33,417 nt of DNA from a virus (lineage: Duplodnaviria; Caudoviricetes). The notes under the pieces were generated by a model. That model did not search any database and was not told the DNA's origin. It was given only the letters and a program-made list of their open reading frames with translations. The number at the start of each line of letters is the position of its first letter. Positions within the stretch are counted from its first letter, which is position 1. Location: IMG/VR virus record IMGVR_UViG_3300033153_008111, positions 1-33,417 of that record; one strand, 5' to 3'. Below, in pieces: positions 1 to 27,400 of the stretch. The translations under genes and the position numbers were made by a program.

Positions 1-108
1 GATGCTGGGAATACAAATGATTTTATTATTGTAAATATATTATCCCCAGCATTGCAAGAAGAGACTGAAAAGGCTATCAACCAAATAGTACAATTGGAGG
101 CAGCATAA
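1..108 (+). CDS. Possible 3' end of a gene entering from the left edge (DAGNTNDFII...QIVQLEAA*)
   Basis: Frame 1 is open from base 1 to TAA 106-108. It contains GGAGG (96-100) 7 nt before an overlapping ATG at 108 (TAATG coupling). Confidence 0.4.
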   Translation, partial: DAGNTNDFIIVNILSPALQEETEKAINQIVQLEAA

Positions 109-292
109 TGAAAACACCATCTGATTTTTTATCTATTGTCAGAGGATTGTAAAATTTAATATTTCTATCAGTTCGTTTTAAAAACCTATTGAATAGTTGT
201 TCAAACTCGTCTATATCATTTAATTCAGATTCAATAGTTAAAATAAAACTAGCAGAACTAGAGTTAGTTACAAAATCTGTTTTAGTTTTCAT
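77..292 (-). CDS. TNSSS-leader protein 1 (MKTKTDFVTNSSSASFIL), possibly C-terminally truncated
   Basis: AAGGAG RBS upstream. N-terminal motif shared with 302-757 and 3113-3499. Only 71 aa versus 128-151 aa for the other two. Confidence 0.75.
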   Translation of the reverse strand: MKTKTDFVTNSSSASFILTIESELNDIDEFEQLFNRFLKRTDRNIKFYNPLTIDKKSDGVFIMLPPIVLFG

Positions 293-301
293 ATTACTCC
301 T

Positions 302-757
302 TTAACACATTCTAGTAGTTCCGTATATACTGGCAGGTTCATCAAGACCTAATTTCTCTCTTAAATTTTCCAATATCAATATTTTTTTGGATAAGTCATA
401 ACCAGAAACCTTTTCGGGATTACCACAATCATCAATATCCATCAATCCAAACCCTACAAGTGTTTTTCCTTCCGGAGCTCCATCTTCTATATCAGATAAA
501 ATGGTAATATCATTATTATGTGAAACTTTGATGTCTCCATATATAGTAATGAATTTAAAAATTTTCTTATAATCATCTTCATCAAGAAACAATTTAGGTT
601 CACTTAACTCTTTATATTGTGCCTCAATTTCATCTATCTGATCTTCATAAAGAGTTGTTAGTAATATTTTATAGTTAACTTTTTTGACTACTTCAAGACC
701 AAGAAATACAAATGAACAACTTGAACTATTTGTTATAAAATCATTTTTTGCTTTCAT
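302..757 (-). CDS. TNSSS-leader protein 2 (MKAKNDFITNSSSCSFVF)
   Basis: ORF track gives 302-763; start moved to the second Met (757) to align with the shared motif. Acidic body of unknown function. Confidence 0.8.
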   Translation of the reverse strand: MKAKNDFITNSSSCSFVFLGLEVVKKVNYKILLTTLYEDQIDEIEAQYKELSEPKLFLDEDDYKKIFKFITIYGDIKVSHNNDITILSDIEDGAPEGKTLVGFGLMDIDDCGNPEKVSGYDLSKKILILENLREKLGLDEPASIYGTTRMC

Positions 758-926
758 ACCCATCCCTTCCCCAACCAGATCCTTTTAAAGTAAAACTGGT
801 TTGTGAAATTATTTTTTTCATTTGAACTTTACATTTATTGCATATAATTGTTTCTTCTTTTATCCTGTTTGTGATGACCTCTTTAATGTCACCACATTCA
901 GGACATTCAAATTCATAAACTGGCAT
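741..926 (-). CDS. FmdB-family zinc-ribbon protein
   Basis: MPVYEFECPECG...CNKC...KKIIS...F.LKGSGW matches the FmdB/Zn-ribbon_8 pattern. Confidence 0.85.
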   Translation of the reverse strand: MPVYEFECPECGDIKEVITNRIKEETIICNKCKVQMKKIISQTSFTLKGSGWGRDGYESKK

Positions 927-935
927 ATAATAAAA

Positions 936-1355
936 TTAACACCTTTCTTGATAGCTTTTGAATTTATAACCTATAATAGAATTAGTTATACAAAGGATTA
1001 TGAACCCTCCCATAAATATTGTACAAGTTATCATCCAACCATTTACAGCTAATAAAAAGCCGATAATAATATTTATAAAGAAGGAGCCAATAATAAAACC
1101 AATATTGGTTTCAAGTCCTATTTCTATTAAATTACCAAAGTTTTCAAAGTATTCATAATCACTATTAAAATCCATATAAAATGCAGACCCGAAACCATAT
1201 ATAACACTAGATACTGTATATAAAATCATTAAAAAGGATGCTCCATTTGTAATTTGTTTCGAATCAGGATACGTCATACTTAAACCTATTATAATCAAGT
1301 AAAATAAATAAACAATTCCTTTAGCAATTCTTATAATATTTTTATTTGATAACAT
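936..1355 (-). CDS. Hypothetical membrane protein (about 4 TM helices)
   Basis: Four hydrophobic stretches, AAGGAG RBS, abuts the Tpt1 stop. Confidence 0.75.
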   Translation of the reverse strand: MLSNKNIIRIAKGIVYLFYLIIIGLSMTYPDSKQITNGASFLMILYTVSSVIYGFGSAFYMDFNSDYEYFENFGNLIEIGLETNIGFIIGSFFINIIIGFLLAVNGWMITCTIFMGGFIILCITNSIIGYKFKSYQERC

Positions 1356-1892
1356 TTAATACTCCTTAATATATACTAATGGTACATGATTTGTTAACCA
1401 CACATTATTATCAGATAAGAAAAATTTATATCCATTATTATTCATCTCTCCTGCTTTAATAGTCATAACTAAAGCCTTTCCGTGTCGTGTTCCAACTTGT
1501 TTGGCAGTTTCTATTTCATGAGATAAATGAACATGATTTCTATTCATAGACAATAACCCATTAGATTTTTTAATAGAAGGAATAAATTTGACTGCGGTAC
1601 CATGATATAGAAATTCAGGAGGCTTTTTTGATTCAAGCCCTAAATCTATATCAATCGAATGCCCTTGATTTGCTCGAATCATTAATCCATCATCACTAAA
1701 GGAAAATCGTTTTTTATTATTAGTTCTAACAATCTCCTTTAGTGATGAAAGATTTAATTTACGCCCGTGTGAGTTAACACAATCAAGTAGACTTTCAACA
1801 GATGCCCAACCATGTTCATCTAGTTTTAAACCTATCGCTTTCGGTTTGTGCCGAAGTACATAACTGAGAAATCTACTATCTGTATTTTTCAT
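1356..1892 (-). CDS. kptA: RNA 2'-phosphotransferase (Tpt1/KptA)
   Basis: SRFLSYVLRH, NNKKRF, IRANQGHS, LYHGT, RNHVHLS and NNVWLT are the Tpt1 signature motifs. Likely start MKNTDS at 1892, 2 nt after the rSAM stop (ORF track gives 1916). Confidence 0.95.
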   Translation of the reverse strand: MKNTDSRFLSYVLRHKPKAIGLKLDEHGWASVESLLDCVNSHGRKLNLSSLKEIVRTNNKKRFSFSDDGLMIRANQGHSIDIDLGLESKKPPEFLYHGTAVKFIPSIKKSNGLLSMNRNHVHLSHEIETAKQVGTRHGKALVMTIKAGEMNNNGYKFFLSDNNVWLTNHVPLVYIKEY

Positions 1893-1894
1893 TT

Positions 1895-2956
1895 TTATTC
1901 CATTAGTGCTGGGCAACAGTTAGGAGTTTCGCTTAAAATTCTTCTAAATCTACCAAACCCTTCTCCGTTTAACCAAGCATCTGCAATTGTTGTATTTTTT
2001 AAACTTATTGAATGAGTATCATGATCAGCAAATGAACAAGGAACTAATTTCATATCTGGTGTGATATAAACTGACATTCGACTCGATTCACAAGTATCTA
2101 TTGACATTTCCTGTTGTGGAGTTAATTCGGCATAAGGTTGAATTTTATTAATTAGACAACTATCCATTCCTATTTTAAAAGAAAGTTTTGTCTTATTAAT
2201 CTCTTTAGCCAATTCTTTAATTTGAAATTCATTAGGAACCCACGTAACTAAATTCTTACCATTCCCTTTCATTTTAAACAGAAGAAGAACAATGGCATTT
2301 AATGTTTCTAGATCTACAAACTTATTATATACTTCATTTTCTCCACGAAACAGTTTCATTACATCAGTATGAGTTTTAGCTGAATATATTTGATGAATAT
2401 TTGTTTTACACCCAGCGGTCATAAACATATTTAAAGCGGTATATGTAAAAGTTTTATCGTACATAGAAACAGCTACGGCTCCTACATATTCTTTTGTTAT
2501 ACCGACTATTTTACTATTAACATTATTTCCAGCAGTAGTATAGTTAGGAACAACTCCGTTTTCTCTTGCGTATTTAACTATTTCTTCAAAATCCTCATGG
2601 TCTTCTGGGTTCCCTCTTCCTCCCAGAGCGACCTGAGAAGCATGATGTTTAACTTGATCAATGATTCGTTTGAAGTCTTCTATCTTCATATTTGGTTCTA
2701 CTTTTGACCCTTGATAGCAAAAATTACAATTGTTTTTACAATGCCCCATAATTCCTACATCACACATTGTAGGGAGCTCGGTCATGAAAGGATCTTTTTT
2801 ACCTTCAAGAGGATTTAAAACTTCAACTCCTGTTTTGGTATTGAAAAATAATTCATAGTTTTTATTTTTGAAAAACTTATCAAACTCTCCAACAATTACC
2901 ATTTTTGTGTTTGGATCAACTATAATTCGTTTCATCATTTTGTTCATCGAATTCAC
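1895..2956 (-). CDS. Radical SAM enzyme with C-terminal SPASM/twitch-like Cys region
   Basis: CKNNCNFC (CX3CX2C), VALGGRGNP (GGE-like motif), PNYTT, and C-terminal CESSRMSVYITPD...PCSF...CCP. Exact start uncertain because of several Mets. Confidence 0.92.
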   Translation of the reverse strand: MNSMNKMMKRIIVDPNTKMVIVGEFDKFFKNKNYELFFNTKTGVEVLNPLEGKKDPFMTELPTMCDVGIMGHCKNNCNFCYQGSKVEPNMKIEDFKRIIDQVKHHASQVALGGRGNPEDHEDFEEIVKYARENGVVPNYTTAGNNVNSKIVGITKEYVGAVAVSMYDKTFTYTALNMFMTAGCKTNIHQIYSAKTHTDVMKLFRGENEVYNKFVDLETLNAIVLLLFKMKGNGKNLVTWVPNEFQIKELAKEINKTKLSFKIGMDSCLINKIQPYAELTPQQEMSIDTCESSRMSVYITPDMKLVPCSFADHDTHSISLKNTTIADAWLNGEGFGRFRRILSETPNCCPALME

Positions 2957-3116
2957 AATTCCTTTCTTCTTTACTAAAATAAAAGAGATCTATTGGAGTC
3001 CATCCTTCTTTTAACATATCAACGGTATCTATTAATCTTTTTTTATCTTCTTCAAGTTTTTCAATACCACGATTAAAAAGATTAGATAATCTTCGGTAAT
3101 ATAAAGACATTATCAA
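2916..3116 (-). CDS. Small hypothetical protein
   Basis: Fills the operon between TNSSS protein 3 and the rSAM gene. AGGAGG upstream; start may be 3110. Confidence 0.55.
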   Translation of the reverse strand: MIMSLYYRRLSNLFNRGIEKLEEDKKRLIDTVDMLKEGWTPIDLFYFSKEERNCEFDEQNDETNYS

Positions 3117-3499
3117 AATCCTCCTTCGCCTTGTATAACACGAACACCCTGATCTTTAAAATCTGATTGAAATATTCCTCTTTCACATATAAGAGCTTCT
3201 TCTGGTTCTCCTTCATTAGTTGCATGAATAATATGTAAATGGCCACCTTTTTCAATAATTGCTAGTTGTTCTAGATATTGTTCATCGTCTTTTCTTTTTT
3301 CTCCAGTTTCTATTTCAGTTCCGTACCATTCATCCCAATATTTATTAAGTTCAACGACATTTGTTAGACTTTCAGATAGGAGAGTTTTTATTTTTATCGG
3401 AACCATAATCTCAACTTCTCCAATATCAATATCAGGAGTACTTGATATTATAAAAGAAGTACTAGAGCTATTTGTTACAAAATCTCTTTTTGTTTTCAT
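3113..3499 (-). CDS. TNSSS-leader protein 3 (MKTKRDFVTNSSSTSFII)
   Basis: Shared N-terminal motif, AAGGA RBS, acidic body. Confidence 0.8.
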   Translation of the reverse strand: MKTKRDFVTNSSSTSFIISSTPDIDIGEVEIMVPIKIKTLLSESLTNVVELNKYWDEWYGTEIETGEKRKDDEQYLEQLAIIEKGGHLHIIHATNEGEPEEALICERGIFQSDFKDQGVRVIQGEGGF

Positions 3500-3500
3500 T

Positions 3501-4541
3501 TTATCCTTTCAAATTATAAATTATCCCATTTTCAATTTTTGGAAAATAATCAAATGAAGGTTTTGTATTGATCTTCATTAAATTTTCTAATATTTTTAAT
3601 TGTTCTTCAAAAATAAGATAAACACTTATATTTGATAGTTTTGTTGCATTTATCATTTTATTTTTATCTTTATTATTAAACCATCCTTTTGTTTCAATCA
3701 AAATCGCATCATTAATTTTAAAATCAGGAATGTAGTTTCTAGTTATTTCTCCATCAAAATAAGGAAATTTTGTATAATTTCTATTCCATTGATTTTTAAA
3801 AAAATATTCTAAAATATAAATGAATCTTTCTTCATAAGAACTTTGATAAAAAATTTTTCCTATTGATGTATTTATATAACCAGTTTTAAATTTAGAATTC
3901 ATAGAAAATTTACCATCAATATAAGCTTGAGCTATACAGTTAGATTGTTTTTCCCTTTCTTTTGGATCAGAAAATCTTTTTATTCCTCTGTCTCTCATAA
4001 TGATTCTTTCATTTGGATCTTCAAGTCTCTTTTTAGTTATTTCGCTCATACGAGATCTTGATTGTTCAGTCCATTGAGATTTCCTTACGTCTAACATATG
4101 ATCCCTTTTAAATTTCCATAATTTAATTGCTGCTTGTTTACATTGTTCTTTTTTATGTTTTTTATATTCTGGATCAGATTCTAATTTTTTCTTAATTATT
4201 TCATTTGCTATTTTAGAAGCTCTTCTATTATCTTCTCTTCCTTTCTTAGTGTTTTTTGCTTTTTTTATTCCTAATTCTCTTTTTTTTCTTACTTCTGAAT
4301 TTTTCCTACTTTCTTTTATTTTTTCTTTTTTTTTGGTTATTTGTTGATCAGTTAAATTTAATTTTTTACCTTTATTATTATGACCCATAATAAATCTGTT
4401 TCCTGATTTAGAAGTTTTATTACCACACCCACATTCACACAATTTTAATTTTTTAGGTAATTTTCTTCTATTATGCCCAAGTATAAAACGGTTATCTTTT
4501 TTAACTAATTTACCACATCCACATTCACAATATTTCTGCAT
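3501..4541 (-). CDS. Free-standing putative homing endonuclease: CECGCG repeats, basic NUMOD-like linker, C-terminal TnsA-like PD-(D/E)xK nuclease
   Basis: Two CECGCG...RF(I)xGHN repeats and YQSSYE...YIPDF...IETKG. AAGGAG RBS supports the start at 4541 rather than 4601. Confidence 0.8.
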   Translation of the reverse strand: MQKYCECGCGKLVKKDNRFILGHNRRKLPKKLKLCECGCGNKTSKSGNRFIMGHNNKGKKLNLTDQQITKKKEKIKESRKNSEVRKKRELGIKKAKNTKKGREDNRRASKIANEIIKKKLESDPEYKKHKKEQCKQAAIKLWKFKRDHMLDVRKSQWTEQSRSRMSEITKKRLEDPNERIIMRDRGIKRFSDPKEREKQSNCIAQAYIDGKFSMNSKFKTGYINTSIGKIFYQSSYEERFIYILEYFFKNQWNRNYTKFPYFDGEITRNYIPDFKINDAILIETKGWFNNKDKNKMINATKLSNISVYLIFEEQLKILENLMKINTKPSFDYFPKIENGIIYNLKG

Positions 4542-4581
4542 GTTAGAATTATCTCCTTTTATTTTTTGTTCTAACATGCAG
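4536..4581 (-). promoter_or_regulatory. 13-bp perfect hairpin pairing the endonuclease start codon, with RBS in the loop and an overlapping late-promoter-like motif
   Basis: Minus strand reads CTGCATGTTAGAA-caaaaaataaaaggagataa-TTCTAACATGCAG. Arms are 4569-4581 and 4536-4548. Confidence 0.75.
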
Positions 4582-4600
4582 CACACATTATGTGAATACA

Positions 4601-5653
4601 TTATGAATTTAAATTACGTTTAATTATATCTATACATAATTCATTAATCTTAATTCGATTAGGTTCTCTTGGTAAATGAGAATCTAAATATAACGCTTCA
4701 AGTTGTTTGTCATAATCCTCAGTAAATTCCATTAATTGGTCGTATGTATAAACTCCGTTTCTTATAGCAATTAAAAATTCAGCGTCTGGACGTGGAAACG
4801 TTATTTTTCCGGTTGTAAGTAATTCTTTACATTCCGAAAATAAACGTACAAGGTGGGAGGCGTGTTTTGTATCCAGTCCAAACCTTTTTTCCATTTCTGC
4901 TCTTGCTGGATTTCTATTTTTCTTCCATTGTAAATAATTATTCCACCCTTTTAGAGCATTAGCAAACGCCTTTTCTCTTTCAAGTGTATGTAACATATTA
5001 TCGCTCACTTCAGGAATTACATCTCTTAAAGCGTTATAATCAACATCAACTAAATGTTGAGCAACATCAATATAAGCAACTGTTTCTTCCATTTCTTCAA
5101 GTTGTTCTCTTAATGGGTGAGACTTTCCTACTTGCTCTAGATATAAAGCTACTAATCTATTGAATGCTCCGATTTGCTCTTTAGGTAATAATGAACGATT
5201 AACAGGAAGTCCATAGTCTGGTCTCTCAGGTTGTTTCTTGGGAGGATTTAATAACCATGATCTGTGTCGTTTAATCCGTTTAAATTGTGAATGAGCATAT
5301 CCTGAAAATGTCCATCTACATTTAGTAGATATAAAATGATCTCTTACGTTAATAATTCTTTCCCACTCTTCTGTATAACTTAAACATTGTTCAAGTGGAA
5401 TAAAAAGAAATTCCACAATATTTGGATTGTTGTTCAATGCTAAAAATAAGAATTTTCTTATTTCATATAATTCATCATCAGCACCGTCCTTATCTTGTAA
5501 TTGTTCTACTTTGTCTAAGAACCCATAGAAATATTTTTCTGTTGGGATGAAAACGCCACGAACATCCGTATCAGAATGTTTAGTAGCATTTCCATATAAG
5601 TGGGATCCAGTTACGAATGTACTAATTACTTTGAATCCTTCAGGTACTTTCAT
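4601..5653 (-). CDS. Pol-beta-superfamily nucleotidyltransferase, RlaP/Nuc-transf-like
   Basis: GSHLYG...SDTDVRGVF catalytic motif, NPNIVEFLF, DTKHASHLVRL. Confidence 0.88.
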   Translation of the reverse strand: MKVPEGFKVISTFVTGSHLYGNATKHSDTDVRGVFIPTEKYFYGFLDKVEQLQDKDGADDELYEIRKFLFLALNNNPNIVEFLFIPLEQCLSYTEEWERIINVRDHFISTKCRWTFSGYAHSQFKRIKRHRSWLLNPPKKQPERPDYGLPVNRSLLPKEQIGAFNRLVALYLEQVGKSHPLREQLEEMEETVAYIDVAQHLVDVDYNALRDVIPEVSDNMLHTLEREKAFANALKGWNNYLQWKKNRNPARAEMEKRFGLDTKHASHLVRLFSECKELLTTGKITFPRPDAEFLIAIRNGVYTYDQLMEFTEDYDKQLEALYLDSHLPREPNRIKINELCIDIIKRNLNS

Positions 5654-5877
5654 TATTTTTTATCCTTCTTCGGAACTTCAATTCCGGCTTCTTTTAGAAA
5701 GTCTTCCCAATCGTCACCGGCTTGGGCTTTTAACATTCCTATTGCAATTTTTGCGTTTGTCATTTGCAGATCCAAAAGCAAATCAACCCTTCGACAAGTT
5801 CTTTCAAATGATTCCGCAATATCACAAACGGCATTTACAAAATCGTTATCCTGCTGATATTCAGAAAATAGACTCAT
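5653..5877 (-). CDS. Small hypothetical protein
   Basis: Overlaps both neighbours in operon fashion; AAGGAG RBS. Confidence 0.7.
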   Translation of the reverse strand: MSLFSEYQQDNDFVNAVCDIAESFERTCRRVDLLLDLQMTNAKIAIGMLKAQAGDDWEDFLKEAGIEVPKKDKK

Positions 5878-7214
5878 ATATTCTCCTTTAATATTACTGC
5901 TATTTGAGTTAATAAATCAAAATCATTCCAATCAGGATTAAGAATAACTAGATCCAATAAAATAGTTTTGATTTTTCCTATTTCTGGACCTGGTTTCAAC
6001 CCTGTAACTTCCATAATATGTTTTCCATTGATAGCTAAATCGCCGAATTTATTAGGGGATTTTCTCTTAATTTCAAACATAATATTATGAACAATTTTAT
6101 TAATCTTTTCTTTAGGATACCCTCCTTTTGTCGAGTTAGCAAGACTATCTGACATTTTCAACTGAAGAAACTCTTTCCAAGAAATTTCATGTTCATTTAA
6201 CATTTGTAGAGTTCGTCGTGTTGCTCTAGGTGTTTTGAAATTTCTCATATGTTTTCCAGTGAGTGTTGTTATATATTTGATTTCTTTATTTGAAAATCTT
6301 AAATGTTTTAATTCAACGTTAAGGCAATCAGCTCCTTTTTCAGCATGTCTATGAAAATGCAAATCATTGGTTTTTGGATTCCAAGAACATGCACCAGGTT
6401 TTCCAACATCATGAAGATAACCAGCTAATTTCAGTAGAGGTTTTCTTATAGGAAGATTATCACCACAAATATATGAATGGTCAATTACTGATTCTTCATG
6501 CCATCTACCATGATCCTTATAAGCATAACAATCATCTAAAGAAGGAAATATATATTCAAGAGCACCTATTTCATATAAGGCATGAAAAAAACGAGATGAT
6601 TTCTTGATCCTTGTTATAGTTTTCATAATCTCCTTATTGATTCTTTCTGGATCAACAAAATCAGGGATTAAATGGGCAAAGTAAATAAGTGCTTCTTTTG
6701 TCTTTTCTTCAAATGTTCCATTGATTAACGCTTTGAATCTGCATGCTCGAATCATCCTATTCGGGTCTTCAAATATTCGCTTCTCAGGACTCCCCACGAA
6801 GCGTATAACGCGTTTTTGTAAATCTTCACGCCCATGATATGGATCCACAACATCACCGGTGTATTGACAAAATGCTGCGGCATTTATGGTTAAATCACGA
6901 CGTTTTAAATCTTCAAGAATATCCCCAGCTACTTGAACTTCAACTTGTTTATCTGATAATCCTGTGTATCTATCAGTTCTGAAAGTAGCCACTTCAATTC
7001 CATCAACCATTACCACTTTAAACGATTTTCCAACCGTTTTGATATTATGCCCTTCAAAAATTTTCTCTACTTCTTCAGGTAAAGCTGCGGTCACAACATC
7101 TTCATCATCTGCGGGAACTCCTCGTAAAAGATCACGAACAGCTCCCCCAACTATGTATGTATCATAACCGCAATCACAAAGTCTTTCAACTATTTCCTCT
7201 CTAGTTATTTTCAT
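5874..7214 (-). CDS. cca: Class II tRNA nucleotidyltransferase (CCA-adding / poly(A) polymerase family) with HD domain
   Basis: VGGAVRD...DED, EVATFR, DLKRRDLTINA, EDPNRMIRACRF, ERINKE, LHDVGK, PGPEIG; GGAGGTG RBS. Confidence 0.92.
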   Translation of the reverse strand: MKITREEIVERLCDCGYDTYIVGGAVRDLLRGVPADDEDVVTAALPEEVEKIFEGHNIKTVGKSFKVVMVDGIEVATFRTDRYTGLSDKQVEVQVAGDILEDLKRRDLTINAAAFCQYTGDVVDPYHGREDLQKRVIRFVGSPEKRIFEDPNRMIRACRFKALINGTFEEKTKEALIYFAHLIPDFVDPERINKEIMKTITRIKKSSRFFHALYEIGALEYIFPSLDDCYAYKDHGRWHEESVIDHSYICGDNLPIRKPLLKLAGYLHDVGKPGACSWNPKTNDLHFHRHAEKGADCLNVELKHLRFSNKEIKYITTLTGKHMRNFKTPRATRRTLQMLNEHEISWKEFLQLKMSDSLANSTKGGYPKEKINKIVHNIMFEIKRKSPNKFGDLAINGKHIMEVTGLKPGPEIGKIKTILLDLVILNPDWNDFDLLTQIAVILKENI

Positions 7215-7497: not shown

Positions 7498-7650
7498 ATG
7501 GTTAAATATGTTCTAAAGAATTATCTTGAAAACTTACAAAAAGATGAGTCTATATTCCCAATGGACTCAGTACATACTGGAAAGAAATTAGTTTTAAAAC
7601 CAGGGTACCCCGAATCAAAAGATGAAGACAAAAAGAAGGATGACAAATGA
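7498..7650 (+). CDS. 50-aa hypothetical protein (MVKYVLKNYLENLQKDESIFPMDSVH...), absent from the ORF track
   Basis: AAGGA/AGGTGA upstream, follows the late motif, ATGA overlap with the HNH gene. Confidence 0.7.
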   Translation: MVKYVLKNYLENLQKDESIFPMDSVHTGKKLVLKPGYPESKDEDKKKDDK

Positions 7651-8528
7651 AAGGTAGTTCAAAAGGAATTAAAAAAACATATACTAATGAAACGGTTGAA
7701 ACTGAAGAATTATGCGTATATGGGTGTGGGTTAATTGCTCAATATAGACTTAAAAATGGAAAATTATGTTGTAGTAGAATGTCTAATAGTTGTCCTGAAC
7801 TAATAAGAAGAAGTGCTGAAACTAGAACAGGGTTGAAGAGAACTAAAGAAATACGAGAAAAATTTTCCAAATCTCATAGAGGGCAAATATCTAACAAGAA
7901 AGGTAAAACTTATGAAGAAATATATGGAAGAGAACAAACTTTAAAAATAAAGGAGAAAATGAGTATTTCAGCAAAACATACTCTAAAATCTCTAAATAAA
8001 AAATATCCATTATTTTGTAAAGTGGAGCAATTAAGAGAAGATCCTGAAACAGGAGATATTCAATGTAGGTGTAAAAACCATAAATGTAATAATTCAAAAG
8101 AAAATAATGGTTGGTTTACTCCATCATATACTCAATTATATGAAAGGATGAGAAATATTGAAAGAGGAGCGTATTTTTATTGTTCAGAAGATTGTAAACA
8201 ATCATGCAATCTTTTTGGAAAATCAACAAATCAAATAATAAAAAATTTTGAAATTGAATCCGGAACTTATGAAGGTAAAAAACAATATTATACAGATGAA
8301 GAATATAGAACATTCAGAAGTGAAGTTTTAAAAAGAGATAATTATAAATGTATTTACTGTGGTGAAAAAGCAGAACATGTTCATCATACAAGACCAAAAA
8401 AACTAGAACCACTTTTTGTTTTAGACCCAGATTATGCAATATCATGTTGTATTGAATGTCATTATAAATATGGGCATAAATCTGGTACTGAATGTTCCAC
8501 GTACAAGTTAGCGATAAAACAATGTTAG
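7647..8528 (+). CDS. HNH homing endonuclease with NUMOD3-like and Cys-rich segments
   Basis: RDNYKCIYCG...HVHH...CCIECH HNH domain, GLKRTKEIREKFSKSHRG NUMOD3-like segment, N-terminal CVYGCG. Confidence 0.85.
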   Translation: MKGSSKGIKKTYTNETVETEELCVYGCGLIAQYRLKNGKLCCSRMSNSCPELIRRSAETRTGLKRTKEIREKFSKSHRGQISNKKGKTYEEIYGREQTLKIKEKMSISAKHTLKSLNKKYPLFCKVEQLREDPETGDIQCRCKNHKCNNSKENNGWFTPSYTQLYERMRNIERGAYFYCSEDCKQSCNLFGKSTNQIIKNFEIESGTYEGKKQYYTDEEYRTFRSEVLKRDNYKCIYCGEKAEHVHHTRPKKLEPLFVLDPDYAISCCIECHYKYGHKSGTECSTYKLAIKQC

Positions 8529-8555: not shown

Positions 8556-9254
8556 ATGAAGTATTCATTTGCAGAGTTAGGATCCAATATATTAACTAGA
8601 CGTTTCGGAGGAACATCCGTAGGAGTAGCAGATCCTTATGTTTCTGGATATCATTTTATCTGGTTTGATAAGTTACCTGCGGATATTATCAAATATACAT
8701 CACAAGGTATTAGTGGAATTTCAAGTGAAGCAGAAGTTAAGAATATTCTTGCTGCTTCTTGTTTAGGTGTAACACCTCCGGGTGGAACTCTTAACAAAGT
8801 AGAATTCACAGGGTTGGGAGGAGTCAAATGGAGTGTGCCCGGCAATGTTGATTATGGGAATACTGTTTCAATTAAGTTTCTTGAAATGAACAAAACTCCT
8901 ATTCTTGATATTATGCATGGATGGGTAAAAATGATTCGTGACTATAGAACTGGTGTTACTGATTTGGTAGATGGTGATAGTGGTGATGGTTACACAAAGA
9001 AAACATATGCAGGTATGATGTATTACTGGACAACAGCTCCGGATGCAAAAACTGTTGAATATTATGCATGTTACGATGGTATGTTTCCTGGTAAAGATCC
9101 TCAAGATCTATTTACAAGTGATGTTGAAACAGTAGGAAGATTAGATGTAGAAATCGAATTCAACGTAGATTATGCATGGCGTGAAACATTCGCAGAAACA
9201 TTTATGTCAGCTAAATCAGAAGTTGAAGGTTATGGCGAAACTCAAGCAGGTTAA
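8556..9254 (+). CDS. Tail tube-like protein (T4 gp19/gp54-type fold)
   Basis: Size, PGGTLNKVEF..LGG...VPG and SIKFLE...WVKMIRD...FNVDY pattern, strong AGGAGG RBS, downstream terminator, baseplate context. Confidence 0.6.
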   Translation: MKYSFAELGSNILTRRFGGTSVGVADPYVSGYHFIWFDKLPADIIKYTSQGISGISSEAEVKNILAASCLGVTPPGGTLNKVEFTGLGGVKWSVPGNVDYGNTVSIKFLEMNKTPILDIMHGWVKMIRDYRTGVTDLVDGDSGDGYTKKTYAGMMYYWTTAPDAKTVEYYACYDGMFPGKDPQDLFTSDVETVGRLDVEIEFNVDYAWRETFAETFMSAKSEVEGYGETQAG

Positions 9255-9267
9255 ACAAATTACAAAT

Positions 9268-9289
9268 GGGGTCTACGGACCCCTATTTT
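9268..9289 (+). terminator. Intrinsic terminator-like hairpin with UACG tetraloop
   Basis: GGGGTC-TACG-GACCCC followed by TATTTT, just after the tube-like gene. Confidence 0.75.
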
Positions 9290-9311
9290 ACACAAATAAG
9301 GAGATTTAATA

Positions 9312-9776
9312 ATGAATATTAATGATTTAAAATTAAATGCAGCTGGTTTTGTAGTTGATTCAAAAATGAGTAAGCCTGCTAAATTACAAATGTTAAAGTT
9401 TATACAACATGAAGCTACAGAAGAACAACTAATGGTTATTCTATTGGATGGAAAAATTGAAGTTCTTGATGAACAAGCATCTGAAATTGTAAGAGATAGA
9501 TTTGCAGTTAATGAAGCAATGACACAGGATACTAAAGATGCTATAACTCCATATAACAGAATGTTTGGGGTTTGTGCTAAAAAATGTGGACGAATTGCAT
9601 TATCTACTAAAGCGGCAGCATGTAAAAAAGCATGTCAAAATCAAAGAGATCAAGCGATCTATAAAGCAAGATTAAAAATTAAAGCAGCTAAAAAAGCAGG
9701 TGGTCCAAATAAAAAAGCTAATGTTGCAGCAATAAAAGCTAAAAGAGCAAAAGAATTAGAAGCATCAAAAAGATAA
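9312..9776 (+). CDS. Basic twin-CX3C protein, probable virion component
   Basis: CAKKC-X11-CKKAC, Lys/Ala-rich tail, AAGGAG RBS. Confidence 0.7.
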   Translation: MNINDLKLNAAGFVVDSKMSKPAKLQMLKFIQHEATEEQLMVILLDGKIEVLDEQASEIVRDRFAVNEAMTQDTKDAITPYNRMFGVCAKKCGRIALSTKAAACKKACQNQRDQAIYKARLKIKAAKKAGGPNKKANVAAIKAKRAKELEASKR

Positions 9777-9805
9777 AATAAAACAACAAGAAAGGAGATA
9801 GACTA

Positions 9806-10597
9806 ATGGTTTTCAAAGGATTTAATGTGAAGTATCCCGAATACGAGGTTATCACCCCTCAGACAAAATTGTCATTCCATGTCAAATCATTGAATGTACA
9901 AGAAGAGGAAAGAATGAAAGGGAGTCTTATGACTCCAACTAAAATCACAGAACATTTAAATAAATGTCTGTTTGAATCAATTACTGTAAAACCTGAAGGA
10001 ATCCAAGACTTTGGAAGTTTTTTAAAAAATGTTACATTAAAAGATAGAGATGCATTGTTATATGGATTATATCATATTACATATGGTGAGATACGAAATT
10101 ACGATGTACGTTGTGGTTCTTGTAATAAGGAGTTCCCTATAAATATTGAAATTTCAAGTACTTTTAATTTCAATCCATATCCAGGCGATAACATTCTTAC
10201 GGAAAAAGTTAAAGTTCCATTAAAAATTACTGATGGGGTTTCCGTAGTTTTAAAACAACCTACCCTTCAAGATGAAACTTTAGCGCTTAGAAATCTTTCA
10301 TCTAGACCTGGATCAAATACAGATCTTATTATTGAAACATTAATAATTGATAGTTTTGAAGAAGATGTTCCTGAAAGTACAGAACCAAAAGTGTACAATG
10401 AAAAAACTGATATTATTGATGCATATTTGACTCTGCCTGCCAAAGACAAAAGAATCATCCATGAACAATACCTAGAAAAATTTGGTAAGTATGGTATTGA
10501 ATTAAAGATGAAAACTTTTTGTCCTTCTTGTGGTGCAGAGGAAGATTTAAATATAGATCTGGTGGAAAACTTTTTTCGTGAAATCCACTCAGCATAA
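9806..10597 (+). CDS. Baseplate hub / assembly protein, T4 gp26-like
   Basis: P.YEVITP...V.EE N-terminus, DRDALLY, two CxxC pairs (CGSC, CPSC), ends in NFF; lies upstream of the gp25-like gene. Confidence 0.7.
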   Translation: MVFKGFNVKYPEYEVITPQTKLSFHVKSLNVQEEERMKGSLMTPTKITEHLNKCLFESITVKPEGIQDFGSFLKNVTLKDRDALLYGLYHITYGEIRNYDVRCGSCNKEFPINIEISSTFNFNPYPGDNILTEKVKVPLKITDGVSVVLKQPTLQDETLALRNLSSRPGSNTDLIIETLIIDSFEEDVPESTEPKVYNEKTDIIDAYLTLPAKDKRIIHEQYLEKFGKYGIELKMKTFCPSCGAEEDLNIDLVENFFREIHSA

Positions 10598-13072: not shown

Positions 13073-15520
13073 ATGTCAGATTCTATTTCAACTCAGATTA
13101 ATTTATCAAGAGATTCTATAAGAGAGCAATTGATTTCCTATATGAAGAATAATCTTGAACTTGAAAATGTGGATCTTACGAAATCGTCATTTCTATCATT
13201 TTTAGTAAATGTTTTATCAAGTCTAACAAGTAATTTATTATTCTATCAAATGTCTGTTTATAAAGAATTCTTTTTAACACAGGCGCAACTTCCCGAAAGT
13301 ATTTTTAATTTATCTGCCTTTCTAGGTTATAATTCGCCAAATGCAAATTATTCAAATGCAACTGCAATTGTTACCGTTCCGTTTGGGTTTCCAGATGCAA
13401 CCAATATATTTACAATTCCTACTGGGTTTAAATTTAAAACAGATAATGAAATTCAATTTGTTACCTATTATACAGTGACAGTTACTGTAACTAGTAATTC
13501 AAGTGTAACTGTTGTATTAACAGAAGGAACTAAAAGATATAATTTAGCCGTTGATGTTGGTAGTTCGGATTTTTCATTTGCTCTACCATTAAGACAATAT
13601 AAGACAGTTATACAAGAATTTAAGATTGATGATTATCTTGAAGAATATCAATTTGTTACAATTGATGTTCCTATGACGGGCAAAGTTGCTGAAATGGAAG
13701 TAAAATTTATAGATCCAACTGATCTATCAGAAACAATATGGACGGAATTTGATAGTTTATATCTTATGAATGAAACATCAGAAGGGTATGTTTCAAGAAG
13801 AACCGATTCAGGAAGAAGATTATATTTTGGAAATAATTTAATTGGGGTTCAACCTACTGCTGGATCAACATTAATAGTTACAACGAATGAAACAGAAGGA
13901 GCTAATGGAAATATAATAGCCGGATCAATTAGAACAGGCGAACGTCTTTATACTACAATTGATTTAGGAACAAATCAATTAGTAAGTTATGATGTAACAA
14001 ATCCATCTTCAGCTACTGGAGGAACTGACGAAGAATCTCTAGAAGCGATTAGAAGTAATTCTATTGCTGCTCTTACAAGTTTAACAAGATTAGTAACTGA
14101 AAATAATTATAAAAATATAGATACTGTAATTCCAAATGCCCCTCTTGGAGCAAATTCTCTTACAGTCAAAAAAACATCTGATATAAAAACAAATGAAACT
14201 AATTTATATAGTTCAATTGAATTTGATGGTGATATTGTTCCTACAAGATCTATTTATTATGAAGTTCCTTATTCTACTACTTTTATTCCTCGTGGAACAA
14301 CAATAACATTTGATTCAATAGACTACTATACTATTTTTTATATGAACATTGATATTTTAAATTCGGTTGCTGAATATATATATATTTTGGACGAACTTGA
14401 GCAAATTCCTACACTTATTACTAGTTATTCTTCACAATACGATCTTATTATAAGTAATCTTGTTGTATCTAAAGTTGGTAACAAAGCGGTATTTACACTT
14501 CACTATATAAGTACAGAAACTAATTATGAAAATTGTACTTGCAAAATGCAATTTGCTTCAACTGAAATTACTCACGCAATGACAAATGATTCAACTGCAA
14601 GTACTTTCACATATGAATTTCCTTTATATACCACAATTCCGGAAGATGATCAATTATATTACTTTACATTAACAGATCCATCATCTATAGATATGGCTAG
14701 ATATTCAGCAACACTTACATTTGCCAAAGATTGTTCTGGATTCATGTTATCAAATACCAATTATGACGGGACAGATACAACAACTATATATGATATTCCA
14801 GTAATAAAGAAAAGTTATTATGATAGTATTAATCAAAGAACATTTGAAAGTTCTGTATTACAACCTATAATTTCATCATTAGGATTAACTAGTTATAGAA
14901 TGTTATCAGATTTTACAAATTTTAAATTTGTAAATACTACTGGAAATTGTGTAAATATGAAATACAATCCCCCAACTCGAACCTCAGTTATTAATTTAAG
15001 AGGTTCCGCCCCAACAGGAATGGATGTAGGGGATAGATATATTTTAACTACTGGAACATATCAAAATTATATATTCGAAGCAACTGATTCAACATCTGGA
15101 ACATATATAGAAGCTATAACTGATGATATTGTACAAGTTACTAGTTTAAATAAATTTTATATTTATTCAGATATAGGTTGGATTGAAATTCCAGAGTATA
15201 CAATTCCATTTGAAATTGAAATTGAGATATTCAAGGAATCATCATATGCAGATTCTAATACTACATTATCAGACACAATTAAAACAGCTATTGTAAATAA
15301 TTTTCAAAGTCGATTTGGAGCAAACCTTGCTTTATACAGGTCCGAAATAATTGACACGGTTCAAAGTATAGATGGTATAGATCATTGTAGGTTATTACAA
15401 CCTACATCAAATATATTTTTCAGTTTCGAAATAAGTGATTTGTCTGAGGATGAACTATTGGAATATACCCCTGATTATGTTTATTTCGATTCTTCTAATA
15501 TTACGGTAAGGATAATATAA
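13073..15520 (+). CDS. Baseplate wedge protein, T4 gp6/baseplate-J-like (uninterrupted copy 1)
   Basis: EFFLTQAQLPESI..L...LGY, LYFGN..IG..P..G, GGTDEESLEAIR...RLVT..Y and SEIIDTVQSIDGIDH motifs. Confidence 0.85.
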   Translation: MSDSISTQINLSRDSIREQLISYMKNNLELENVDLTKSSFLSFLVNVLSSLTSNLLFYQMSVYKEFFLTQAQLPESIFNLSAFLGYNSPNANYSNATAIVTVPFGFPDATNIFTIPTGFKFKTDNEIQFVTYYTVTVTVTSNSSVTVVLTEGTKRYNLAVDVGSSDFSFALPLRQYKTVIQEFKIDDYLEEYQFVTIDVPMTGKVAEMEVKFIDPTDLSETIWTEFDSLYLMNETSEGYVSRRTDSGRRLYFGNNLIGVQPTAGSTLIVTTNETEGANGNIIAGSIRTGERLYTTIDLGTNQLVSYDVTNPSSATGGTDEESLEAIRSNSIAALTSLTRLVTENNYKNIDTVIPNAPLGANSLTVKKTSDIKTNETNLYSSIEFDGDIVPTRSIYYEVPYSTTFIPRGTTITFDSIDYYTIFYMNIDILNSVAEYIYILDELEQIPTLITSYSSQYDLIISNLVVSKVGNKAVFTLHYISTETNYENCTCKMQFASTEITHAMTNDSTASTFTYEFPLYTTIPEDDQLYYFTLTDPSSIDMARYSATLTFAKDCSGFMLSNTNYDGTDTTTIYDIPVIKKSYYDSINQRTFESSVLQPIISSLGLTSYRMLSDFTNFKFVNTTGNCVNMKYNPPTRTSVINLRGSAPTGMDVGDRYILTTGTYQNYIFEATDSTSGTYIEAITDDIVQVTSLNKFYIYSDIGWIEIPEYTIPFEIEIEIFKESSYADSNTTLSDTIKTAIVNNFQSRFGANLALYRSEIIDTVQSIDGIDHCRLLQPTSNIFFSFEISDLSEDELLEYTPDYVYFDSSNITVRII

Positions 15521-15523
15521 AAA

Positions 15524-18500
15524 GTGTCAGATTCTATTTCAACACAAATTGATATATCAAGAGATTCTATAAAAGAACAGGTTAGTACATATCTTAAAGA
15601 ATATCTTGAAATTGAAAATGTAGATCTTTCAAACTCCTCATTTTTATCATTCCTGGTAAATATTTTATCAACACTCACAGGAAATATATTATTTTACCAA
15701 CTCTCCGGTTATAAAGAATTTTTCTTAACTCAAGCACAACTTCCTGAAAGTATTTCCAATTTATCTGCATTTCTAGGTTATCATTCAAACATGGCGGAAT
15801 ATGCGACTACAAATGTTGTTATGACTGTTGAGTTTAATTTTCCAGACGATTCAAATACATTTACAATTCCATCTGGATTTAAATTTAAAAGTAATAGTAT
15901 AGAATTTGTAACTTATTATACATCTGATGTAGAGGTCACAAGTAATTCAGAAGTTAATATTTTAATTACAGAAGGTGATAAAAAATACTATCTTCCAGTA
16001 ACAATAGGAAGTGGAACCTTTTCTTTTGCATTGCCGGTACGTCAATATAAAACAAATACACAAGAATTTCAGATAGATTTGGATATTGAACCTTATCAAT
16101 TTTTAACCATTGATGTTCCCTTATCTGGAAAAGCTACATCTATAAATGTAACTATTTCAGAACCAGGAAATGCAGCAACTATTTTATGGACTGAATATAA
16201 TAGTTTATACTTTTTAGATCAAACTACCAAAGGGTATGTCGTAAGAAATACAAGTTTTGGAAAAAGATTATTTTTTGGAAATGGTTTAATTGGAAGTCAA
16301 CCTTCTGCAGGATCTAATATAACAATAGTTATAAATGAAACTGAAGGAACTATTGGAAATATTGATGCTGATTCTATTACATCTGGAGATAAAGTATATA
16401 CATTTATAGAAACAGGAACTAATCAAGCAGTTAAATATACTATGACAAATCCTGTATCAGCTACATGTGGAAAAGATGAAGAATCGGATGAAGAAGTTCG
16501 AAGTAATTCTATTAAACATATCACGAGTTTAGGAAATCTAGTAACAAATAATGATTATAAAAATATTGATGTTGTTGTTGACAATTCTCCTTTATCAGAA
16601 AATATTCTGGCAGTTTTAAAAAGATCTGATATAAAATTAAATGATATTCAACTATATAGTCCAATTGAATTTTCAAGTGAAATAACACCTACTAGAAATA
16701 CTTATTATACAGATCGTACCGACTCGGGTATTGTTTCAAGAGGGACAATAGTAACAACAGATAATGTTGATTATTACACTCTTTTTGATTTAATATTAGA
16801 TTATACTACTTTAATTGCTAAATATAAATATGTAATGTATGAAATTGAACAAATCCCATCCTTAATAATAACACATACCAATTATGGTTTATATGTTATT
16901 AATTTAGTTGTTTCTAAATCAGCTTCTAAAGCAGTTTTTAAATTATATTATACAAGTACCGAATCAAATTTTGAGAATTGTACTTGTGAAATGCAAATTG
17001 TATCAAATGAAACATCTTATAATATGGTTAATGATTCAACCTCGCAAACATTTATATATGAAATTGACCCATATACAACAATCCCTGATGATAAACAGAA
17101 ATATTATTTTTCTATATCAAATCCATCATCCACATTAGTTTCAAAATATTCTACTTCTTTTACATTTGTTAAAGATTGTTCAAAATTTATGTTATCAACA
17201 TTTGAATATACAGATCCATATATTCCAGTTGAATCTTTTGATCCTGTTTCGGTTTCTCCTTTTTATACATGGGTTATTGAAGAAGATACTTATAGTAAAA
17301 CAGATCCTCATCTAGATCATAATATTATATTTAATTCTATTACTGGTAAAGTTGAAATAGTGTATATTGATGATAATGTAAATGAAGGAAGTTATCATAT
17401 AAGCGGAAATAAAGATTCCTTTACAGCCGGAGATTATAGATGCTCTAATATGCAATATCAATCCAAAATAATGTTGGATGATTTTGGTAATATATATTAT
17501 GTTGGTTGGAGTGGAACTGGTTATTTAGGTATTAAAGGTAATGGGTATGGTAGTTATTCTGCCGATGCTTATGATCTAGCTCCCGGGTATAAAATACACA
17601 ATAGTGTGGGCGATAGATATAGTTACAGAGGATTTGATGTAATAACAGGTCTAAATGAAGGTGATATTCATGCGGTTTTTTATGGGTATAATTCAACTTT
17701 AATGATAAATTATGGGACTTACTATACAACAAATGTAACTGGATCATGGGTAACCAAATTTATTTCTGATAAATTTTCATATGTACCTAAAATCAAAATT
17801 GACAGTCTCGGAAATTTATATATTGTTCTACCAAATACAACAACAAATGCTTATACAACAGTTATAGAAAGTTTAGGTACTTGGGAATCAACAAACTATT
17901 CTGCTATTGTTAATTCGTCAATTTCAATGGTTGGAATTGATTTTGATTCTAGTAATAACCTTCATATGGTTGGATTTCATTCATCTATAAATAGTTTAAT
18001 TTATGCCACAAATGTGACAGGTGAATGGGTAAGTCAAACTATTACCCAAATTGATCCTTTAAATAATACAAGTGAATGGACCGGGTCTTATAAACAAATT
18101 TCATTTAAAATAGGTCGTAATAGAACGGTTTATATTCTTCATTATTACACAAGTCTATCAACTACAGCTGCCAAAATGGTTATGAGTAATAATGTTTCAG
18201 GTCAATTTATTAGTTCTATTGTGGATCAAGAAAATGAAACAGGAAGAACATATACTGATTCTGGTGTGCAAATGGATCTTTATATAAATAATATTCATGC
18301 TGTTTATTGTAAATATAATCCTGGTTCTACAGTAATATATTCTTCTCTAGTTTACGGGGTATTCGGGGAATCAGGATATGTTTCATTAACAGATACTAAT
18401 TACTGGGCTCCAGATTCCACTATTTGTAGTTTTGACAGTACTTCTAATACATGGGTATCAGAGGATACATATTCACCAAAAGGTATAAGTCTAACTCCTA

Positions 18501-20791: not shown

Positions 20792-20840
20792 TGGTCTGAT
20801 TAAACACAATACAATCTTATTATAAGGAGAATAATAATTC

Positions 20841-23123: not shown

Positions 23124-23125
23124 AA

Positions 23126-27382: not shown

Positions 27383-27400
27383 AAATAGGAATTTTAATTT

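Follow-up and report, generated by a model that had tools for sequence, protein, structure and literature searches.

Two kinds of radical S-adenosylmethionine (SAM) enzyme are among the closest described precedents for the system reported here. Anaerobic sulfatase-maturating enzymes (anSME) abstract a C-beta hydrogen from a Ser or Cys in a whole protein and so oxidize that residue to formylglycine (PMC10114670, partial text). TqqB is a radical SAM-twitch enzyme (PMC10114670, partial text) that forms an ether between a Thr and the Gln next to it, with Asn tolerated as the acceptor (PMC9389541, partial text). Radical chemistry is known in leader-guided form for short peptides and in motif-guided form for single protein families. 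We analyzed a 33,417-base stretch of phage DNA (the window), which is the complete virus record IMGVR_UViG_3300033153_008111 and a piece of a large myophage genome. Its minus strand encodes a radical SAM enzyme and three proteins with a 16-residue tag, MKxKxDFVTNSSSxSF, always at the N-terminus. We consider it probable that the TNSS core of this tag is the substrate of the enzyme, which would be a leader-guided radical SAM/twitch maturase acting on whole proteins. By analogy, its action would resemble both the whole-protein Ser oxidation of anSME and the work of leader-guided twitch maturases such as TqqB, but the system appears to belong to neither group. Its features in the window are as follows.

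1895..2938, minus strand: radical SAM enzyme, 347 residues, carrying a beta extension at the N-terminus and four Cys in a twitch-like tail (PF04055)
2810..2833, minus strand: enzyme residues 36-43, a strand predicted in the complex model to run antiparallel to tag residues 1-7; G37 and D49 invariant in 46 homologs
2717..2740, minus strand: CX3CX2C motif (C67, C71, C74) of the SAM-binding cluster, invariant in the alignment
1913..2158, minus strand: four conserved Cys (261, 283, 301, 342), putative ligands of one auxiliary 4Fe-4S cluster, invariant in 46 homologs
3113..3499, minus strand: tagged protein 1, 128 residues, of a family ending GEGGY/F, tag at 3452-3499; predicted local distance difference test score (pLDDT) 80.7, below 50 for residues 1-9; partner in the complex model
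302..757, minus strand: tagged protein 2, 151 residues, of a family that has Cys14 plus a Cys at the C-terminus; its tag spans 710-757
77..292, minus strand: tagged protein 3, 71 residues here and 116 in the overlapping contig L001, tag at 245-292; pLDDT of the 116-residue model 78.9, below 50 for residues 1-10

What the system shares with the anSME/AtsB type is that its likely clients are entire proteins bearing a conserved Ser motif. The differences concern both enzyme and clients: the complete SPASM domain of anSME holds two auxiliary clusters, whereas the enzyme here has four conserved tail Cys, and the clients are not sulfatases, never have Cys at position 11 or 12, and carry their motif behind an N-terminal docking strand. 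The sulfatase motif is (C/S)xPxR, which is not the motif of the clients. Theirs is TNSSS; no Pfam family was found on the three window clients, and there was no sulfatase match among 79 other tagged proteins. TqqB, of the streptococcal radical SAM peptide threoglucin, finds a parallel in the invariant Thr/Ser9-Asn10 of the tag. It was compared by description only and differs in modifying a quorum-sensing-controlled short precursor close to its end; moreover, the RB16 group of tags has Ser at position 9, which TqqB accepts only marginally.

The three open reading frames (ORFs) starting at 3499, 757 and 292 on the minus strand read MKTKRDFVTNSSSTSFII, MKAKNDFITNSSSCSFVF and MKTKTDFVTNSSSASFIL, respectively, each with a purine-rich, Shine-Dalgarno-like stretch upstream. 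Their shared motif, first pointed out in a preliminary description made from the sequence alone, was re-read from the window, and the tag pattern had no match in 100 base shuffles; among the NSS triplets in all six frames of the window, the tag is present only at these three. The Ser codons were likewise as that description gave them (AGC-TCT-AGT at 3499, AGT-TCA-AGT at 757 and TCT-AGT-TCT at 292), and tags across other loci also draw on both the TCN and AGY boxes. This differing codon use rules out a DNA repeat and places the conservation at the peptide level. The tightly coupled operon proposed for these genes was recovered as a run on one strand from 7214 to 77 in which genes abut or overlap. 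All three tagged ORFs are real, as proposed, but the 71-residue length of the third in the window probably reflects a mis-join; the protein has 116 residues in L001.

To measure conservation of the tag core, loci reached by way of the enzyme were searched with a pattern that left positions 9-13 free. The segment was TNSS-like in 177 of 182 matches, and among these 177, residues T9, N10 and S12 occurred in every case, S11 in 176 and S13 in 172. Residue 7 was Phe in 201 of 202 matches. Positions 14-15 depend on the family, Cys14 being paired with a C-terminal Cys in 11 of 16 cases, and the tags of E. coli phage RB16 and Vibrio phage D479 have Ser at position 9.

Tag and enzyme occur together. 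Enzyme-centered loci were the best 80 of 222 viral matches (including this phage and near-duplicates) and the best 80 of 380 genome matches (including some phage contigs in bins), and are not independent. A tag gene was present in the fetched flank of 57 of the 80 viral and 71 of the 80 genome loci, compared with 4 of 80 terminase loci of related phages; the Fisher value for this adjacency, 2e-19, overstates the independence of the loci. A slightly stricter tag pattern gave 57 viral and 70 genome loci, and ATG starts only gave 46 and 68. Every one of 203 tag genes lay on the strand of the enzyme. Starting instead from the tag, a DNA pattern applied to a third of the collection found 152 viral loci, of which 80 came with flanks, on 56 contigs. 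By hand count the enzyme was within about 6 kb of the tag on 36 of these contigs, elsewhere on the contig on 5 and not found on 13, with 2 contigs not searched whole.

The association was also examined in whole genomes. Among 300 genomes drawn evenly from the class of a pre-selected Clostridia record (G046; one further genome unscored), with thresholds of E<=1e-5 for the tag and E<=1e-30 for the enzyme, the same 10 carried both tag and enzyme and 290 carried neither. Tag and enzyme were on one contig within about 2 kb in 9 of the 10 carriers, and the chance of the other 9 of 299 coinciding is 2e-17 if the genomes are independent. Among 301 genomes from the phylum of a Desulfobacterales record (G349), the tag was found in 4 and the enzyme in 2, both enzyme genomes having the tag. 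Among complete phages, RB16 carries the enzyme with every tail Cys retained (hhalign 99.9%), together with two tag genes about 20 kb away, one of the commonest partner type; D479 carries the enzyme and five tags; and T4, RB49 and KVP40 have neither enzyme nor tag. Across 50,697 phage records, matches numbered 171 for the enzyme and 174 for one RB16 tag protein; their host spread is almost the same, but the matched records are close kin. A tblastn search of cultured phages with the 22-residue tag gave no matches and was too insensitive to count. The preliminary description had named genomic association of the motif family with this radical SAM clade as a test, and the association proved very strong; its alternative of Ser-Ser self-cleavage independent of the enzyme is disfavored by the same co-occurrence.

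The enzyme matched PF04055 (E 1.4e-7; 32.3 bits vs. a cut-off of 29.5), which places it in the radical SAM superfamily, and has a GGRG motif and an N-terminal extension of about 55 residues. It had been described as a CX3CX2C enzyme with a SPASM/twitch-like tail. The cluster motif and four invariant, twitch-like tail Cys stood, whereas the SPASM assignment did not: PF13186 fell below its cut-off (17.8 vs. 21.5), and the four tail Cys compare with seven to eight in two-cluster SPASM enzymes. One bacterial homolog of the enzyme passes TIGR04085. We infer from sequence conservation that Cys 261, 283, 301 and 342 are ligands of a single, twitch-like auxiliary 4Fe-4S cluster; 74-77 of 78 bacterial homologs retain them, as does the RB16 enzyme, a conservation that extends from phages to Firmicutes. 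The polar barrel residues D60, Q102, N132, T134, S158, N180, H182, D259, E284, R287, Y291 and S302 are kept in 77 of the 78. Homologs at E<=1e-20 numbered 510 among 1382 candidates. The enzyme belongs to phrog_7293 (E 2e-29), which is listed as of unknown function; an NCBIfam scan gave nothing above cut-off (best 45.7 vs. a cut-off of 380), and the only solved sequences matched by the enzyme profile were SuiB (5V1Q, E 1e-4) and SkfB (6EFN, E 7e-4), both peptide maturases. Bacterial homologs including L153:7968-9059 have a lengthened cluster motif, about CX7CX6C rather than CX3CX2C, with the barrel residues retained, and at L119:6706-8564 a homolog is split by an ORF resembling an endonuclease, probably an intron or a mobile insertion.

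A complex of the enzyme with two 4Fe-4S clusters, SAM and the 128-residue client was modeled together with three controls. It scored 0.86, compared with 0.00 for the best of the three controls. Among solved pairs 116 of 157, and among mismatched pairs 2 of 215, reach the mark, counts that are only rough here, with ligands and our own alignments outside the calibration. Runs agreed in at least 78% of contacts, the pLDDT of the partner was at least 61, and confident contacts involved client residues 1-16 only. In the model, tag residues 1-7 lie antiparallel on enzyme residues 36-43, with the enzyme:tag pairs 41:2, 39:4 and 37:6/7 at 0.6-1.0 Å expected error; Lys2 of the tag is at Asp49, and Phe7 occupies a pocket formed by Q102, V130, N132 and A154. 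Tag residues 8-16 continue along the barrel past the SAM-binding Tyr75 and Gly106 to Cys261/283/301. Interface residues are invariant in 30 of 57 positions vs. 35 of 290 elsewhere in the enzyme. The enzyme is predicted to bind the tag by docking the leader and then threading the core into the barrel, and the earlier suggestion that the TNSSS segment is a shared substrate or docking tag is supported by this model, which seats only the tag in the enzyme, with the refinement that residues 1-7 are the predicted docking leader and TNSS the likely target.

Leader-guided threading of this kind resembles that of SuiB and SkfB, although the sequence match to both is only at superfamily level and the N-terminal extension here is only about 55 residues. 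More generally, maturases acting on peptides that are made ribosomally and then post-translationally modified (RiPPs) hold the leader as a beta-strand at an N-terminal element and the core in the barrel, an arrangement that here is a model. The hidden Markov models of the RiPP maturases WgkB, StsB and SkfB scored the enzyme far below cut-off, and the window contains no KxxxW or sactipeptide precursor, protease or exporter. The window clients, unlike RiPP precursors, are 116-151 residues long, two of the two modeled fold, and the operon ORFs have no protease or transporter match; peptide-like precursors do occur at loci L098 and L111.

The model also bears on the alternative that the tag is a non-catalytic docking peptide which completes or regulates the enzyme, the tagged proteins being adaptors that bring the true substrate (a nucleotide, an RNA or a host protein). 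The docking strand is indeed the best-resolved part of the model, the bodies are diverse and include the protein-binding BRCT, LRR and TIR domains, and RNA-repair genes are frequent phage neighbors. We nevertheless regard this alternative as unlikely: tag residues 8-16 fill the barrel up to the SAM-binding Gly106 and Tyr75 and the auxiliary Cys, leaving little space for another substrate, T9-S12 are conserved above the level of the docking strand, and RNA-repair genes are missing from most loci.

With the TNSS core as the substrate, the reading we prefer, residues 1-7 would dock as a beta-strand leader on enzyme residues 36-43. The enzyme would act on an unfolded or nascent client N-terminus, because residues 12-16 start the first strand of the client in the monomer model; sulfatase maturases act on unfolded protein. 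The 5'-deoxyadenosyl radical would abstract a hydrogen in the TNSS core, with the auxiliary cluster taking an electron, and the two-electron oxidation would place a reactive carbonyl where the folded domain begins, either by conversion of Ser11/12 to formylglycine or by cleavage of the backbone, which would remove the leader and leave a keto-acyl cap. Acidic loops particular to each family, with His, Cys or Asp at the C-terminus, would complete a catalytic or metal site beside the new group, and one enzyme would serve several clients, some of them encoded far away. Provided that the core is modified, we suggest such a carbonyl product (formylglycine or the keto-acyl cap) tentatively; epimerization or some other outcome is conceivable and somewhat more doubtful, and a TqqB-like ether between Thr9 and Asn10 is rather unlikely. 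Fusions to BRCT, LRR and TIR and the batteries of tagged genes in large phages hint weakly at a role in phage-host conflict. The full proposal, in which the 16 residues are a portable tag by which one radical SAM enzyme clips or converts the N-termini of unrelated proteins into a carbonyl cofactor or covalent warhead, arming at once entire sets of phage proteins and the BRCT, LRR and TIR conflict proteins of bacteria, is speculative and on balance doubtful.

The bodies behind the tag are dissimilar. With the first 20 residues removed, 401 tagged proteins fell into 90 body clusters, and 6 of 253 cluster pairs exceeded 50% hhalign probability; some tagged families elsewhere are, as judged from these profiles, distant paralogs of each other. 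For the three clusters of the window the probability of profile similarity was below 1%, in line with the earlier remark that the bodies diverge beyond the motif. A Pfam scan of the 79 other tagged proteins gave 12 matches, all bacterial, to BspA LRR, BRCT, TIR and beta-propeller families. Since the tag stands on bodies as unlike as BRCT, LRR, TIR and Cys-Asp peptides, it is portable. In AlphaFold models of two clients (128 and 116 residues), residues 1-9/10 are unfolded and both bodies fold. The 116-residue client has a beta-alpha-beta-beta-alpha-beta order with ferredoxin-like topology and only weak matches by Foldseek against the PDB; its best Z score was 7.2 (root mean square deviation 3.5, 94 aligned residues, Trop2), within background. 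The 128-residue model has unpaired strands and no structural match, its best Z score being 3.4. These Z scores are also what a check for pyruvoyl or SEA-type self-cleaving folds, with Ser in a strained internal loop, yielded for the two clients. Neither model had a match in BFVD at E<=0.001, which does not make the fold new, and the ESM Atlas returned viral clusters without names and weak YflT/ActD rows (TM score about 0.5, under the bar). A single known fold shared by the clients is unsupported by these comparisons. The preliminary description had asked whether the three proteins might be full-length paralogs of a known fold; profile, Pfam and structure comparisons detected none. A body-only search with the 116-residue client returned only itself and was too insensitive to count.

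Outside the tag, most small tagged families are conserved in an acidic loop after the penultimate predicted strand and at the very C-terminus, which ends in His-His, Cys (paired with Cys14), Asp-Asn/Gly or GGY. If the fold is ferredoxin-like, both elements would lie beside the start of strand 1. A Firmicutes family of 470-500-residue tagged proteins (L103, L105, L107, L110 and others, at about 9014-10535) has a hydrophobic helix right behind the tag, coiled coils and no Pfam match. At L235:5080-5469, a member of a tagged family lacks the leader and begins at the Asn position, a natural untagged control. At L098:9152-9427 and L111:9627-9884, a tag variant, TNSSE, is fused to long Cys-Asp repeat peptides; these loci have two or three radical SAM genes, one of them PapB-like, and are candidates for a new RiPP with two modifying enzymes.

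Such tag-plus-repeat peptides resemble RiPP precursors and would fit a second alternative, in which the tag as a whole acts as a RiPP-type leader and the residues that the enzyme modifies lie downstream in each body, as would the family-variable positions 14-15 and the tie of Cys14 to a C-terminal Cys in 11 of 16 cases. No residue is common beyond position 16 across the 90 clusters, however, TNSSS itself is seated in the barrel of the complex model, and the Cys-Asp loci have extra radical SAM enzymes able to account for modification of the core, so that we hold this alternative improbable. Very improbable is a third, that the proteins are distant paralogs with TNSSS as a structural loop or an enzyme-independent self-cleaving site and with inherited adjacency: the related body-cluster pairs (6 of 253), body-only searches that return almost only tagged proteins and the existence of orphan tags speak for it, but the exact co-occurrence across 300 genomes, the co-occurrence at a distance in RB16, the presence of the tag on bodies without a common fold such as Cys-Asp repeats, and the unfolded residues 1-10 of both client models speak against it.

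Several observations weigh against the TNSS core as the substrate of this enzyme. The complex score may owe part of its height to likeness with solved leader-bound maturases, barrel interiors are conserved in radical SAM enzymes anyway, and the model identifies neither SAM's neighboring residue nor the residue attacked. Cys never occurs at position 11 or 12 of the 177 TNSS-like tags, unlike in sulfatase substrates. The two client models show no common fold, and the idea of a shared site draws on conservation patterns only. No tag was found in the flank of 23 of the 80 viral enzyme loci, and 22 of their contigs are tag-free throughout, all of them 1-12% complete; among enzyme loci without a flank tag, tags were found elsewhere in 4 of 6 genome records and in RB16. 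Of the 13 tag contigs without an enzyme, two are 78% and 84% complete and one is the right-hand contig of this phage. Genome G042 has the enzyme and no tag, as does a 462-kb phage with a distant enzyme homolog (E 1e-22). Finally, 2 of the 4 tag genomes in the second phylum sample lack the enzyme, and orphan tags lie in a mobile element and directly after nifV. In the latter case (L414:5843-6202, genome G621), the tagged gene stands straight after nifV in a nif cluster with nifE-like, nifA-like and amt genes, and no enzyme of the clade was found in the genome.

Other described systems were also compared. In the KpAvs2 system, a radical SAM gene (Avap1, not viperin-like) and a gene for a small unknown protein (Avap2) stand in an anti-phage context (PMC11564622, partial text). 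Avap1 was compared by description only; Avap2 differs in being DUF6375-like, a family that matched 0 of the 79 tagged proteins scanned, and the window has no Avs or DUF6375 match. Prokaryotic viperin is also distant, pVip matching enzyme residues 63-159 only (27.6 bits) and NF038283 scoring 20.2 vs. 180. By contrast, RB16p156 and its kin in PHROG 7293 belong to the same family as the enzyme (E 2e-29; hhalign 99.9%) and have tagged genes in the same genomes; they are annotated only as putative radical SAM proteins, and there enzyme and tags are about 20 kb apart. These kin occur in phages of the Pseudotevenvirus/Slopekvirus type. The FxSxx peptide system differs from the tag system (PMC7159879, partial text). 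In the accessible literature covered on the tag motif, on phage and jumbo-phage radical SAM enzymes and on pyruvoyl groups and backbone cleavage, no description was found; the main text of the jumbo-phage review PMC7824862 does not contain the word "radical". The enzyme-tag system is real and widespread and is apparently undescribed, and supplementary tables such as those of PMC10288494 (a compendium of radical SAM RiPPs) or PMC7159879 could list the clade.

With these results, many hypothetical proteins of large phages and anaerobic bacteria gain a dedicated enzyme and a candidate substrate site. In the literature covered, we found no account of a phage enzyme that acts, by way of an N-terminal tag, on as many as seven dissimilar folded proteins per locus. 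If a new modification is indeed installed, it would amount to new radical SAM chemistry and a genetically encoded tag for protein labeling. Both chemistry and phenotype are directly testable, because the cultured E. coli phage RB16 carries the module and T4 and RB49 do not.

The following annotated features of the window are not core parts of the system.

1..114, strand not assigned: inverted segment at the contig end, likely an assembly chimera and outside the system, from blastn against L001 and the junction word
741..926, minus strand: FmdB-type zinc ribbon in the same gene run, TIGR02605 above cut-off; close to the enzyme at 2 of 79 other viral loci
1356..1892, minus strand: Tpt1/KptA RNA 2'-phosphotransferase directly after the enzyme (PF01885, E 2e-52); in 0 of 79 other viral loci
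4601..5653, minus strand: RlaP nucleotidyltransferase, upstream, a frequent neighbor (PF10127); in 12 of 79 other viral loci
5874..7214, minus strand: CCA-adding enzyme, upstream, a frequent neighbor (PF01743); in 11 of 79 other viral loci

The RNA-repair set (Tpt1/KptA, RlaP and CCA-adding enzyme; window 1356-7214) is as described for jumbo phages (PMC7824862, partial text), and the frequencies above rule these genes out as core parts. Two public contigs overlap the window, L001 at its left end and L317 at its right, with 99.7-100% identity. L317 contains three further tag genes, far from the enzyme, so that this phage likely has at least six. Window 1-114 matches another part of L001 (99.7% identical) in the opposite orientation, with a 10-base shared word at the junction, and is likely an assembly chimera; it cuts short the third tagged ORF, which is genuine in the window only for its first 62 or so codons.

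A promoter and terminator scan stayed at chance level. On the plus strand of the window lie genes for the baseplate, the virion and the terminase. Two free-standing genes (3501-4601 and 7647-8528; endonuclease I-like and HNH) resemble endonucleases and have Cys-rich repeats at the N-terminus; they are probably homing endonucleases. Window 13073-29704 encodes three baseplate-wedge (phrog_219) proteins, two of them very long and each of these followed by an Fn3-associated protein of about 760 residues, in duplicated baseplate/receptor modules.

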